Source: Candidatus Aenigmatarchaeota archaeon
GTDB taxonomy: Archaea > Aenigmatarchaeota > Aenigmatarchaeia > QMZP01
DNA: 64,000 bases
Direction of reading: 5' to 3'
Assembly: GCA_043824495.1 (NCBI GenBank)
Contig: JBDRSV010000010.1
Coordinates: forward strand, 32,001 to 96,000
The position numbers were made by a program, and so were the translations under genes. Positions 36,007 to 42,051 of this stretch are shown in pieces; the first letter of the stretch is position 1, and every line of letters starts with the position of its first letter. Below the pieces are notes generated by a model. That model did not search any database and had not been told where the DNA came from. It worked only from the letters and a program-made list of their open reading frames with translations.

Positions 36007-37741
36007 TATTCATCTAGAAGTTCTCTTTCATCTGGTGTTAATTTACTTTCTATTTTCTTTAGTTTTTCTACATCTTCGTGAGAAAGGAAAACATTGAGAA
36101 CATCGCCTTCTATTATTTCTTTACCTATTGTAACTCCTTGCATAGAAACAGCTACTTTGTCTCCCATTTTTACTTTAGAGATATTATCTCCTCTAAGTTG
36201 AAGTTCTTTTATTTCGCCTACAATATCATTTCCTTTTTTGAGTCTATAGGCTGATTTTAGAGTTCCTTTCAAAACTTCAACACCGAAAATAGCGGGCTTG
36301 CTTGCCCTGAAAACATAACCAGGTAGAACTCTTACTCTTCCAGGCCTTGTTATACTTTCTAATATTCTAGCTTCTTTTCTGGCTCTTTCATCCTTTTTCC
36401 ACTTTTCATAATCTTCTACGAGCCTGTAAATGACATCGGAATGGAATACAGATATATTGTTGTCTTGGGCCATTTTCAAAATATTAGAATCAATTTTGAT
36501 ATTGAAACCAAAAATAACAGGATCTTTCAAAACTCTCATTTCCATTATATCAGATTTTGTGATGTTTCCTACAACAGCTTTTCTTATAGGGACATTTTTA
36601 TCTTTCAGTGTTTTAATCAAAGCCTCTAATCCTCCGAGTGTATCAGTTTTCAGAAGAGTTCCTTCATTCTGTGTTTCAATTTCAACCTCTTCGACTTCTG
36701 CCCTTAGTTCTTCAATAGCTTGGTCTATATCGGATTCGTTTGCAACAGCCCTCAAAGGTGAACCAGGTATAACGTCTTCTAAATCAGAAGCGGCTATTTT
36801 TATTCCAGCAGCAGCAGATACGGTATCGACATTAACAAAATTACTATTTTTTAATTCTTTCAAAATCTCAGGTTCTAATAAAGCCTTGACTTTGGTTTTT
36901 ATTATTTTGTTTCCACCAATAATTATACAGTCTCCTCTTTTGATATCTCCGTCATATAGGATAACATCTATTGTTGTTCCCAAACCACGAAAATTTTTTA
37001 CTTCAAGAACAGTTCCTTTACCTTCTCCATTAGTTAAGATAAGTCCTCTTTTTAGAAATTTCTGGGAAATACCACTTAGTGTCATAAGCAGTTCAGGAAG
37101 TCCTTCTCCGGTGTGAGCGCAAATTGGAACAACAGCTATTTGTTTTGAGAAATCTGATATCCTGTCTATTCTCTCAGCTTCAAATCCCCTAACACCCAAC
37201 TGTCCAATTATTTTATATATTTTTTCTTCTAGAGCATCTTGAACTCTTTCTGATTGACAATTGTAAGTAACAGTAAATGGCTTATCTTTTTGTGGCATCC
37301 AACCAGCAATTCTATCAAGTTTTGTGATGGCTACCATGAAAGGAGTTTTGAATTGTTTTAAGTAATTCAGACTCTCTTCAGTTTGTGGTTGAAATCCTTC
37401 CATCACATCAATAACAAGAATGGCCAAATCAGCAATAGCTCCGCCTCTTTTTCTAAGAGTTGTAAAAGCTTCATGTCCTGGTGTGTCAACAAACAATAAG
37501 CCAGGAATGGTTAACTTAATGTTCATCTTCTCCAACAAATTACCAGCAATTTTTTTAATTAGTTCTGTAGGAACTTTAGTTGCTCCTATTGTTTGTGTGA
37601 TGGCTCCTGCCTCCCCTTTTACTACAGAGGTTCCCCTAATTTTATCCAGTAAACTGGTTTTACCGTGATCTACGTTTTCGGTTGAGATAATACTCAATGT
37701 CCGACTACGACCACGATAGGTGATCTGAGTTTTTCAATCAT
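36000..37741 (-). CDS. infB: Translation initiation factor aIF5B/IF2, interrupted by a 23-nt BHB intron (37676-37698)
   Basis: Exon 1 MIEKLRSPIVVVVGH plus exon 2 gives GHVDHGKT after splicing. DTPGHEAF, TKLD and other motifs are present. Confidence 0.93.
37676..37698 (-). other. Archaeal BHB intron in infB pre-mRNA
   Basis: Helix TCGG/CCGA, bulges ACA and AAA, intron stem TTGAG/CTCAA. The unspliced frame hits TGA. Confidence 0.88.
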
Positions 37742-39084
37742 ACTCGTTTTAGACTTTTATAAAAATCAAGTTCCTCCTTTCCTTTATTTGTAAACGAATA
37801 AATTTTTTGTCTATAGTGGTTTTTATCAATTTTAGCTTTTAAATAGTTCTCTTCTTCGAGTCTCGTTAAGAACATTCTTGTGGTTATTTGGGAAAGCCTT
37901 AAAAATTTTGCAGATCCTAAACTTGTATTAAATCCGTTGTTAACAGAATCTAAATATTTGTAAAGATAAACTTTCTTATTATTAAAAATGTTTCTTACTA
38001 ATTTATTTTTCCTTTTCTGATGAGTTATGCAACCTAATTTAAGTAATTTTATAAAATTACTTCTATTTGTTATTCTCACTGACCAATATCCCTTTTTACC
38101 CGTAATATAGTACATTTTACTTGTTCTTATTCCTATAATTTTGCATATATTCTTGAAGAATAATGCATTCTCTCTACTTTCTGTAGAAAAATTTACTTCT
38201 TTATGAGAAACACCAATATCACCTCTTGACAATCCTCTGAAGGTCTCTATTGAAAATTGTTTTGAACTAAGTGTCAAGTTCATACAATATTCCATAATGT
38301 AATAGAAAACCTCAGCCAACGTAGAGTTATGGATATTAAGAATACACACACCGTGTGATGCAGATACTCTAGAGTTCTTAATTATTTTTATATTGTCTTT
38401 TAATAGTCCAAACTCTGACCAATATTCTTCAAGATTTCGAATCGTATTTTGATCTTTTTCAGGAAATAGTATTTGCACTTTCCATAAATCCTTTTTTATA
38501 CCTAAAATAGATTCAGCGGCTTTGACGAACCAAGCTATCTGAGATCCATCTGCATTAGAAAATGAAAATCTATCTAAATGCTTCCCTTTTTTTCTACTCT
38601 TAAAGCCTTCACAAAAATAAGCTCCAAAGAGCTCCAGTAAGCTATAATTCCCTTTTCTAATAGGTATGAGTTTTGGCAATTCAAATGCATTATTCCCCTT
38701 AGAGTAAATCCATAAAAGAAGTCTATTGTTTTCTAATTCAAATTTATGAAGAGGGTATCCTCTGATTGTTTCTCTTGGTATTATATTGAGTAGATTTGCA
38801 TAACCCTCTTTTTTTACGCTGTTTCTCTCTTTTGGAATACTTATTATATTAAAATAGATATTTTGTGGTGTCTTAATATTATTTGCAAGATGAATAGGCA
38901 CTGTAAATCTCACATCTTTTGTTGTTTTTAGCACAGCGGGAAATGTGGCATCTTTAATTTTTATTAGGGCTGGTTGAACATCATTTAATTTAAACTGTCC
39001 TATTGAAGATTTTTTAGTTACAATAATGTAGCTAGATTGATTATGTCTGCCTTTGCTCTGTTCATAAATTCTTCCCTTTAACAT
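37738..39084 (-). CDS. Free-standing LAGLIDADG-like endonuclease with C-terminal wHTH
   Basis: LLELFGAYFCEG...FSFSNAD and TFRGLSRGDIGV helices; its stop overlaps the infB ATG. Confidence 0.65.
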   Translation of the reverse strand: MLKGRIYEQSKGRHNQSSYIIVTKKSSIGQFKLNDVQPALIKIKDATFPAVLKTTKDVRFTVPIHLANNIKTPQNIYFNIISIPKERNSVKKEGYANLLNIIPRETIRGYPLHKFELENNRLLLWIYSKGNNAFELPKLIPIRKGNYSLLELFGAYFCEGFKSRKKGKHLDRFSFSNADGSQIAWFVKAAESILGIKKDLWKVQILFPEKDQNTIRNLEEYWSEFGLLKDNIKIIKNSRVSASHGVCILNIHNSTLAEVFYYIMEYCMNLTLSSKQFSIETFRGLSRGDIGVSHKEVNFSTESRENALFFKNICKIIGIRTSKMYYITGKKGYWSVRITNRSNFIKLLKLGCITHQKRKNKLVRNIFNNKKVYLYKYLDSVNNGFNTSLGSAKFLRLSQITTRMFLTRLEEENYLKAKIDKNHYRQKIYSFTNKGKEELDFYKSLKRV

Positions 39085-39623: not shown

Positions 39624-40478
39624 TTGACTATGGTTATAGCAAATGGTGAGCTGAAGGACAATATAAACATACAACCTACCAGCTCAAGCTATATTGATAT
39701 AGGAACATACAAAAGTTTAGGAAATTCTATTGTTTACTCTACTACACTCACAAGAACAAGAAGAAATTATTACGATTCAAAGAACGAGCTACCAGAAGGA
39801 CATAGAATGTCCACGGCAGTAGAAGAACTTGCAATCCAGCTTGGCCTTGAAAGGGCAGGACAAGACCCAAGAAAAGCTGAAGTGCTCAACGATCTTTTCG
39901 GAAGGAAAAACAACGGATGGTATGCATTCCAATGGACAGAAACAGGATTAAGGGTACCTAAAGGATACGATCCAAACAGGACAGAGACAGACGAACAAGG
40001 AAGAAAGTATTTCCAAAGAATTATTCTGATAGGCGACCAGGAAGTAGGTGAAGTGCTTGTCCCGGAAGGAAGCGGAAGAGCTATTATGGAATGGGACGAA
40101 GTGTTTGGGATACCAAGAGTAACCTCAGACAAGGCCGGAGACATGACGCTCGAAAACCACACAACTCATTTTTACTTTGATGCAAATCCAGGACAAGACG
40201 ATAAAAGCGGCGGATATGATGTATCCGTTGCCCGTGGGAGCGACTGGCATCACGCTGATCACGCTAGGTGCCTGGGCGTCTATGCGGCCTGCGAGCGTTG
40301 GTATGCGTACGTCAATGATGGTGTTCGTCCGGTTCAGGGTTCTCTTCCTGAGATCACACCAGAATTTGTGAGAATTGATCCCGGAATAGTGGAAGAAGCA
40401 AAGGCAAGAACGATAACAATAGACGATGATGCTGCAAACCTGACAGCAAGACAGTTTAAAGAAAAATATAGTGTATAA
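39624..40478 (+). CDS. DGR target protein (probable C-type-lectin-fold variable domain)
   Basis: The VR encodes VARGSDW...NDGVRP near the C-terminus. Confidence 0.85.
   Translation: MTMVIANGELKDNINIQPTSSSYIDIGTYKSLGNSIVYSTTLTRTRRNYYDSKNELPEGHRMSTAVEELAIQLGLERAGQDPRKAEVLNDLFGRKNNGWYAFQWTETGLRVPKGYDPNRTETDEQGRKYFQRIILIGDQEVGEVLVPEGSGRAIMEWDEVFGIPRVTSDKAGDMTLENHTTHFYFDANPGQDDKSGGYDVSVARGSDWHHADHARCLGVYAACERWYAYVNDGVRPVQGSLPEITPEFVRIDPGIVEEAKARTITIDDDAANLTARQFKEKYSV
40225..40329 (+). repeat. DGR variable repeat (VR), 105 nt
   Basis: Colinear with the spliced TR; 13 mismatches, 12 at TR adenines. Hairpin TCAGG/CCTGA downstream at 40334-40351. Confidence 0.93.
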
Positions 40479-40797
40479 ATAATTTCTTTTTGAATTAAAT
40501 ACAATGGATACTTCAACTTTTATTTCCTTTGGAACCCCAGAGAGAGATAATTTCTTCTACTAACCCACATAGCCAGAGCGTTCCTGATTCTTTGTATAAT
40601 CCGTCACTCTTTATAGTCCTGGCCAGAACCGGCTCCGTAACAGAACACACAGCCGGAGAACCCTGAACTATACGCCTGTTCATAGACGAAGCCATATAAA
40701 ATATGTGCTGATGACATGAAATTCAGCAGTGACAGCTAGTAAGCAGAGAAGAAAACTGAAACTGTGGTGAAATCTTGAGTGAACAAGCTACTGAACA

Positions 40798-40943
40798 CCG
40801 TTGCCCGTAGGAGCAACTGGCATCACGATGATCATAGCGAAGCGCTATCATAAACGATAGGTGCCTGAACGTCAATGCGAACTACGAGCGTTGGAATGCG
40901 AAATTGCTGACAAGCGACGCAAACGGCAATGATGGTGTTCGTC
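40798..40943 (+). repeat. DGR template repeat (TR), 146 nt including two BHB inserts (40834-40853, 40903-40923)
   Basis: 146 minus 20 minus 21 equals 105 nt, the VR length. Confidence 0.93.
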
Positions 40944-40969
40944 AATAATCCAGTCTGGCCGGGATCTTT

Positions 40970-42051
40970 ATGAAAACTCATGGCAAACTATACAATAATA
41001 TACACTCAATAGAGAACTCTATCTGGCATATAGGAAGGCCAGAAAAGGCAAAAGGAATCGACATTATGTAAAAGAATTTGAATATGATCTACAGAACAAT
41101 ATACTAAGCTTACAAAAAGAACTAACAGAGCTCACATATGGGCCTAATCCCCTGAAAATCTTTGTGATAAGGGATCCAAAAACCCGTGTAATTTCCGCAT
41201 CTGATTTTAGAGATAGAGTTGTGCATCATGCACTATTCAACATCATTGAGCCGATATTTGAAAAAACATTTATCCATGACTCGTATGCAAGCAGGAAGAA
41301 CAAGGGGACCCATAAAGCTATAGAAAGGTTTGACGAGTTCAAGAGAAAGACAGCAAGAAACGGAAAACTTATAAAAAATGCAAAAACAAACAACATAGTC
41401 ATTGGCTATGTATTAAAAGCAGACATAAAGCACTATTTTGATTCAGTTGATCATGAAGTAATGATTAATATAATTAAAAAGAAAATCAGTGATAAGCACG
41501 TATTATGGTTAGTAAAGAAGATTCTGGACAACCATAACACCAAGATGCCATGCAAAGGAATGCCTATTGGAAACCTCACGAGCCAGACATTTGCAAACGT
41601 ATATTTGAATAGCCTTGATTATTTTGTGAAACAAAAACTAAGGGCAAGATATTACATCAGATATCTTGATGACTTTGTCATATTTGACAGAAGCAAAGAG
41701 AAGCTGGAAAAATATAAAAATCAGATAAGCGAGTTTCTCAAAACAATAAAACTGGAGCTTCATCCCAATAAATCCAAGATAATACCCCTGCATAAGGGCA
41801 TTAATTTTCTCGGCTTCAGAATTTTCTACTATCATAAACTTCTCAAGAAGAGTAATATCAGACTGTTCAGGAAAAGAACAATTGAATTAGAAAAGTCTTA
41901 TATATGTGGGGAAACATCCAAAGACAAGTTATGCGAAAAGATCAACGGCTGGCTGGAATATGCAAGGCATGGAGACACATATAAACTGAGGAAACGAATT
42001 CAAGATGAGATTTCTCATTTCTTAATGATTATAAAGAAAAAACCTCAATAA
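40970..42051 (+). pseudogene. DGR reverse transcriptase with a 1-nt deletion/frameshift near codon 16-17
   Basis: MKTHGKLYNNIHSIEN in one frame, LYLAYRKARKGK... in the -1 frame. GMPIGNLTSQ and RYLDD motifs are intact. Confidence 0.8.

Follow-up and report, generated by a model that had tools for sequence, protein, structure and literature searches.

How can a diversity-generating retroelement (DGR), whose template repeat (TR) is broken by two inserts in the genome, give rise to a variable repeat (VR) that carries neither of them? The question is raised by a 64,000-nt stretch of DNA from a Candidatus Aenigmatarchaeota archaeon (assembly GCA_043824495.1, contig JBDRSV010000010.1, positions 32,001 to 96,000), which we refer to as the window. 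To our knowledge, DGRs are the only natural targeted protein hypermutation systems in prokaryotes. So far the template has been regarded as one unbroken DNA repeat, and programs that detect DGRs seek ungapped TR/VR pairs. An earlier note on this DNA had proposed that the TR RNA is spliced before mutagenic reverse transcription, a claim supported by the register of TR and VR, the recurrence of the inserts among relatives, the covariation of their helices, a comparison of TR-to-VR transfer with a second locus (L022) and the introns found elsewhere in the host. We put at about 0.8 the probability that this DGR template is a split gene, spliced by host EndA and RtcB before reverse transcription. 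Cleavage by EndA, ligation by RtcB and the timing of splicing ahead of reverse transcription are all steps that we infer from sequence comparison.

The VR (positions 40225 to 40329; 105 nt) is in frame and uninterrupted, and it lies toward the 3' end of a protein-coding ORF of 284 aa (39624 to 40478), about 50 codons ahead of the stop. Direct-repeat search and alignment resolved the TR, which spans 40798 to 40943, into three blocks colinear with the VR at offsets of 573, 593 and 614. Exon 1 (40798 to 40833, 36 nt) corresponds to VR positions 40225 to 40260 with three A-to-N differences, and exon 2 (40854 to 40902, 49 nt) to 40261 to 40309 with nine. Exon 3 (40924 to 40943, 20 nt), at the end of which TR/VR homology stops, corresponds to 40310 to 40329 and holds the only non-A mismatch, G40926 in the TR against T in the VR. 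The sequences between them, intron A (40834 to 40853, 20 nt) and intron B (40903 to 40923, 21 nt), are TR-only inserts whose positions in the earlier note proved exact to the base; all of these features lie on the plus strand. With both inserts removed, the TR is 105 nt long, the length of the VR, and differs from it at 13 sites, 12 of which are TR adenines (binomial P = 5e-7). This DGR-type adenine pattern appears only once both inserts are taken out.

Variable proteins of DGRs are characterised by a C-type-lectin or Ig-like variable fold. The target protein matched no Pfam family and, with a profile built from 11 homologs, no sequence relative in the PDB; its AF2 model (mean pLDDT 38.9, from a shallow alignment) was too poor for a fold search. 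Homologous VR-bearing ORFs adjoin related reverse transcriptase (RT) genes. The assembly contains no VR for this TR beyond 40225 to 40329. No population variants of the VR were seen in the sole other assembly (Logan, SRR26275509), which is 100% identical over 9284 bp, VR included, and a degenerate pattern over junction 1, with N at each TR adenine, found no match in JGI metagenome contigs. Upstream, between aIF5B and the target gene, lies a free-standing ORF of 448 aa (37738 to 39084, minus strand) with a weak match to LAGLIDADG_3 (E = 5e-4).

In the canonical archaeal bulge-helix-bulge (BHB) motif, a 4-bp helix is flanked by two 3-nt bulges, one on the 3' side of each helix strand, and cleavage follows the second base of each bulge. 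We coded this rule and applied it to the TR gaps. Intron A has a central helix (H) of ATGA/TCAT with 4/4 pairs, bulges TC^A and AA^A (^ marks the predicted cut), a 5-bp inner stem (h') of TAGCG/CGCTA closed by the loop AAG, and a 2-bp outer helix (h) of CG/CG, followed past a small internal loop by six more pairs, GGCATC/GGTGCC. Intron B has H TGCG/CGCA, again with 4/4 pairs, bulges AA^A and AA^C, and a 5-bp h' of TTGCT/AGCGA with the loop GACA; it has no adjacent outer helix (h = 0), and a 5-bp outer helix, CGTTG/CAATG, is set off by an internal loop. The strict form of the motif has h and h' of at least 2 bp each. Intron A is thus of the strict hBHBh' form and intron B of the relaxed HBh' form, which would need an endonuclease of broad specificity. 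The helices, bulges, inner stems and outer pairs described in the earlier note were all recovered by geometry scan and folding. In ViennaRNA predictions, the BHB structure of intron B is the minimum free energy fold, while that of intron A is one of two near-isoenergetic folds, the other being a symmetric hairpin. The fold of the TR as a whole is not special (z = -0.67); only the local intron folds stand out.

Both inserts fit the canonical handedness of the motif and fail the mirror-image geometry. The excised segment is asymmetric about its hairpin: excision leaves behind the 5' strand of the helix along with two bases of the bulge, and takes out the 3' strand plus the next two bases. This asymmetry is predicted by the BHB rule and not by simple skipping of a hairpin, and favours the BHB reading. 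The predicted spliced junctions are GATGATC^ACGATAGG for intron A and GCGAA^CGGCAAT for intron B. Excision by the rule gives an ungapped alignment, so that the 105-nt spliced TR is in register with the VR, as had been claimed. The excision product is read here indirectly, through the VR, and, with some positions masked by A-to-N changes, the junctions can be placed only to within 0-3 nt; microhomology at the junctions is likewise 0-3 nt overall, with 0-1 nt at intron A and a 2-3 nt repeat (GAA) at intron B.

The earlier note had also called for a search of related genomes for gapped TR/VR pairs with covariation that preserves the BHB, and such pairs proved to be common. RT homologs with 52-69% identity were found in 16 further genomes from this archaeal order, labelled as Aenigmatarchaeota, Nanoarchaeota or Woesearchaeota MAGs. 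Within the order, 14 of the 16 DGR loci with a readable TR/VR pair carry one or two TR inserts, of 20-53 nt, that are missing from the VR, and one metagenome contig likewise has inserts in its TR only; the exceptions are L018, with no insert, and L017, with only two 3-nt indels. The inserts are absent from all VRs. In a blind geometry test, 16 of 18 scored TR gaps combined, in the canonical handedness, a 4/4-bp H with an inner stem of 3 bp or more, and the mirror-image geometry was never met at these gaps. The chance rate at random positions in the same loci was 0.2%, or 1.1% when nine placements were allowed, giving P below 1e-26 for the observed count, although the loci are kin and so not independent. 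Excision by the BHB rule gave an ungapped TR/VR alignment in perfect register in this locus and 12 others, and in 13-14 loci the core TR/VR differences fall at TR adenines only, on either side of the junctions. As controls, the same RT was used to fetch about 30 DGR loci from bacteria and other archaea; these have unbroken TR/VR blocks of 81-192 nt and contain no BHB-type inserts.

Intron positions are conserved as well. Orthologs of intron A, with changed stems, occupy the same TR position in L022, L006, L007, L015 and L068. Intron B is found at the homologous position in 14 loci and is kept about 20-30 nt from the TR 3' end across the whole order; in most copies its adjacent outer helix is weak or absent (h of 0-1). 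The closest metagenomic relative, L068 (contig OBEQ011574055.1, RT identity 67%), shares the TR sites of introns A and B and carries a third insert, of 39 nt, in between; in two of its three central helices, one pair is mismatched.

If these inserts are excised by way of the BHB structure, their helices should be maintained as sequences diverge, and this is what we observed. Among the 14 loci, H of intron B varies on both strands together (TGCG/CGCA, CAGG/CCTG, CCCG/CGGG, CTCG/CGAG), the exon-side strand shifting with the intron-side strand, and the h' stems have unrelated sequences and lengths among loci yet remain paired. Given a plain MAFFT alignment of nine intron B copies, RNAalifold returned, unaided, exactly H, the 3-nt bulge and h', with compensatory changes at 5/7 pairs. 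Paired cells amounted to 98.3%, versus 17-36% when partners were slid by 1-3 columns, and the covariation score was 0.73, versus at most 0.09 for slid partners; none of 500 shuffles reached 0.73. Intron A showed the same covarying behaviour in seven loci.

A comparison with L022 bears on whether the VR was made while the introns were in place. This locus belongs to another genus, has an intact RT of 69% identity, and carries both introns, which sit after the same positions of the spliced TR as here (36 and 85) and are recognisably homologous in sequence, so the introns predate the split of the two lineages. Between the two spliced TRs there are eight differences. At seven of these sites each VR has the base of its own TR, and the seven fall in all three exons (spliced coordinates 11 and 35 for exon 1, 41, 50 and 74 for exon 2, and 95 and 104 for exon 3). 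Since the VRs mirror the non-A substitutions of their own TRs, TR sequence was transferred to the VR in both lineages after they separated, at a time when the introns were present, and the introns were not copied. Gene conversion at the DNA level would have brought the introns along. The eighth site is G40926, at which L022 has A, so this TR changed from A to G after its last homing. As judged from these substitutions, homing occurred while introns were present in the TR.

Splicing of this kind would depend on the host. We examined introns and splicing genes in the rest of the genome, an archaeal assembly of 1.01 Mb with 35% GC that is 80% complete. Introns of the same geometry interrupt the tRNA-Ala, Arg, Tyr and Cys genes. 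ARAGORN reported only 20 tRNA genes in the 1.01 Mb, about half of them with introns, some at non-canonical positions; probably many host tRNAs are multi-intron or split and escape detection. The aIF5B/infB gene contains a 23-nt BHB intron (37676 to 37698, minus strand) with H TCGG/CCGA, bulges AC^A and AA^A, and stem TTGAG/CTCAA. It interrupts the P-loop codons: the unspliced frame reaches a stop after MIEKLRSPIVVVVGH, and once the intron is taken out, GHVDHGKT is restored within a long frame that is open from the ATG at 37741. This mRNA intron implies that the cell already splices micro-introns of such size and shape from a transcript other than a tRNA.

The genome encodes the ligase RtcB. 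Its profile match (contig C2:319-3141, L001/L002) is split into positions 1-52 and 49-426 within a single open frame of 1002 aa, which suggests an intein-sized insertion in this RNA ligase gene. EndA was not found in the 80%-complete assembly with Pfam PF01974 at E up to 10, NCBIfam TIGR00324 or an EndA protein query from the same genus, which we read as incompleteness of the assembly rather than true absence. Of 46 genomes from the family, 44 have the gene, the same genus included, and the tRNA and mRNA introns imply that the host possesses the enzyme. In one of these genomes (G022), the DGR of which also has TR introns, EndA (392 aa) matches the ARMAN-2 epsilon2 enzyme 4FZ2 end to end (E = 3e-101). 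Archaeal EndA recognises the BHB motif irrespective of context and not the tRNA body, and the epsilon2 and (alpha-beta)2 enzymes are the only types that cut relaxed motifs (PMC5829648). The broad specificity of an epsilon2 EndA fits the relaxed form of intron B.

The RT gene (40971 to 42051, plus strand; RVT_1, E = 4.5e-25) begins 27 nt downstream of the TR end, and its translation shows IGNLTSQ and YLDD, which are of the DGR forms IGxxxSQ and YxDD. In this copy it is frameshifted, the longest intact ORF being 41164 to 42051. A 1-nt deletion near 41017-41019, after codon 16, falls between the codons for ...SIEN and LYLAYRKARKGK: the gene reads MKTHGKLYNNIHSIEN in one frame and LYLAYRKARKGK in the next, and intact homologs read MKTHKNLYDKLCSYENLYDAFRKARKGK. 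The frameshift site is identical in the independent Logan assembly of SRR26275509, within the 9284 bp of identity. We considered whether the frameshift marks another intron and rejected this, since exactly one base is missing relative to homologs and there is no extra sequence. A related decaying copy, L006, has its RT frameshifted at a different N-terminal site. Judging from the frameshift and the one post-homing TR substitution, the copy studied here may have been inactivated recently. The general conclusion about splicing is unaffected by the frameshifted RT because it rests on intact relatives and on the comparison with L022. A search of the genome for Avd (PF05635), an accessory that is common and not universal, gave no match with E up to 1. 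Two more distant loci, L014 and L018, do have an Avd-like four-helix ORF, placed between TR and RT and sharing the open frame of the RT.

Upstream of the TR, positions 40610 to 40796 on the plus strand match the RT-16 RNA motif (Rfam RF03019) over the full length of the model, at 66.6 bits against a gathering score of 50. The match ends 1 nt before the TR, and in 17 of 20 related archaeal DGR loci RT-16 likewise directly adjoins the TR, whether or not TR introns are present. It is thus a probable 5' structured domain of the DGR RNA in this archaeal class, and the primary transcript likely runs from RT-16 through the split TR to the RT mRNA. Some RT-16 matches are extra long (L068, L023, L006), and further introns may lie there. 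Just 3' of the TR/VR homology (40940 to 40965 in the window), a sequence of about AATAGYTCAGNCTGNCCNGG is conserved in L014, L016, L019, L022 and others. Many relatives also share a fixed difference, AATAG in the TR versus AGTAG in the VR, that is reminiscent of IMH*/IMH. Candidate hairpins 3' of the VR, for target recognition, and 3' of the TR had folding energies no better than those of shuffled sequences.

Taken in order, the proposed pathway would start with transcription of a DGR RNA comprising the RT-16 domain, the TR and the RT mRNA. Each intron, together with flanking exon bases, would fold into a BHB motif, and host EndA, of the epsilon2 type in this family, would cut after the second base of each 3-nt bulge. 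RtcB would then join the TR exons, the DGR RT would copy the spliced 105-nt template with adenine-specific errors, and the cDNA would replace the VR in the target gene.

The same repeats might arise if the RT skipped the two hairpins by template jumping or slippage on an unspliced TR, with no cleavage of RNA. The inserts are stable hairpins, the GAA repeat at the intron B junctions could guide a jump, and Wu et al. (2018, PMC5758913) explained the TR/VR length differences seen in 7% of DGRs by slippage of the RT beside AAC repeats. As in those cases, the TR here is longer than the VR and the indels lie beside AAC-rich sequence; unlike them, the inserts are structured elements of 20-53 nt with BHB geometry and covariation. 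Skipping is also difficult to reconcile with the deleted segment, which differs from the hairpin and follows the BHB rule, or with the scant microhomology at intron A. In the host tRNAs and the aIF5B mRNA, elements of identical architecture have to leave the RNA with no RT involved, archaeal EndA acts on the motif whatever its context (PMC5829648), and the bacterial DGRs examined have no such inserts. We consider skipping very unlikely. Another possibility is that EndA cuts the TR and the exons stay unligated, held by their outer helices, while the RT switches template from exon to exon. RTs of the group II-like kind are known for end-to-end template switching, the helices GGCATC/GGTGCC and CGTTG/CAATG could keep the exons together, and ligated and nicked templates look alike in sequence data. 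However, most intron B copies have little or no adjacent outer helix, switching usually adds or loses junction bases whereas 13 loci are in perfect register, and the encoded RtcB must already join identical cleavage products in the tRNAs and the aIF5B mRNA. Cleavage without ligation is a very unlikely explanation.

It could also be argued that the inserts are late, neutral insertions into an already dead DGR, so that no VR was ever made from an intron-containing template. This would be in keeping with the frameshifted RT of this copy and of the decaying L006, and with the one non-A TR/VR mismatch. Yet the introns are orthologous in L022, L006, L007, L015 and L068 and hence older than these lineages, and L022 combines an intact RT with the same two introns. 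Each VR, moreover, tracks the lineage-specific non-A changes of its own TR across all three exons, and adenine-only divergence extends across the junctions in 13-14 loci. Given these patterns, insertion after inactivation is the least credible of the alternatives and highly improbable. Splicing of the TR RNA before reverse transcription is the reading that we prefer, and it would plausibly place diversification under host control. More tentatively, and in our view doubtfully, the introns may themselves be a working part of the element: they would break homology between TR and cDNA, intron B especially, guard the master template from its own mutagenised cDNA and from TR-VR recombination, and gate diversification on EndA and RtcB.

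In full-text literature searches we found no publication describing introns in a natural TR, in agreement with the earlier note, which knew of none. A natural DGR with a split and putatively host-spliced template is thus new relative to the literature found. Like the DPANN/Nanoarchaeota and BPP-1 DGRs, the element has an RT of the DGR clade (IGxxxSQ, YxDD) adjoining the TR, and a VR near the 3' end of the target ORF with adenine-specific differences. Unlike them, its TR is discontinuous in DNA, with two BHB introns; no Avd gene was found here, and the conserved RNA structure, RT-16, precedes the TR on its 5' side. In the account of the DPANN/Nanoarchaeota DGRs, introns are mentioned only in the context of RT phylogeny (Paul et al., 2015, PMC4372165). 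The closest precedent is an experiment in which an engineered, self-splicing td group I intron placed in the BPP-1 TR was removed before cDNA synthesis (Naorem et al., 2017, PMC5703328). There, as would be the case here, the intron is lost at the RNA level and the cDNA and VR receive ligated exons only, and the experiment offers, by analogy, proof of principle that a DGR can use a spliced template. That intron was artificial and self-splicing, whereas those described here are natural, order-wide, 20-53 nt long and of the protein-dependent BHB type.

Archaeal BHB introns are known from pre-tRNA, pre-rRNA and a few pre-mRNAs (e.g., cbf5), where they are cut by EndA (PMC5829648). The TR introns resemble them in the 4-bp helix, the two 3-nt bulges, the predicted cut after the second bulge base, and the occurrence of strict and relaxed forms. 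They differ in that the host RNA is the template of a retroelement and the splice product is recorded in DNA, as the VR; our literature searches returned no report of a retroelement template as a substrate of BHB splicing. RT-16, for its part, has been listed only as a motif near RT genes. RT motifs were speculated to belong to DGRs, and only RT-10, which lies between the TR and RT of BPP-1, was assigned to one (Weinberg et al., 2017, PMC5737381). In the archaeal DGRs, unlike RT-10 of BPP-1, RT-16 sits 5' of the TR.

These observations have consequences for how archaeal DGRs are found and understood. Elements in which the TR matches the VR only after splicing would be missed or mis-called by ungapped searches, and TR/VR "indels" recorded in archaeal DGRs may be introns rather than the result of RT slippage. 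The locus would parallel, in nature, the td-intron experiment by which the RNA intermediate of DGR homing was established, and it would add a retroelement template to the substrates of archaeal BHB splicing. Information flow in that retroelement would run through the tRNA-splicing endonuclease and ligase, and the VR would provide a DNA read-out of exact in vivo splice junctions in organisms beyond culture. Were the introns indeed a working part, a retroelement would have recruited the tRNA-splicing pathway as a device for directionality and control, and the VR would also serve as a genomic fossil record of archaeal RNA splicing.
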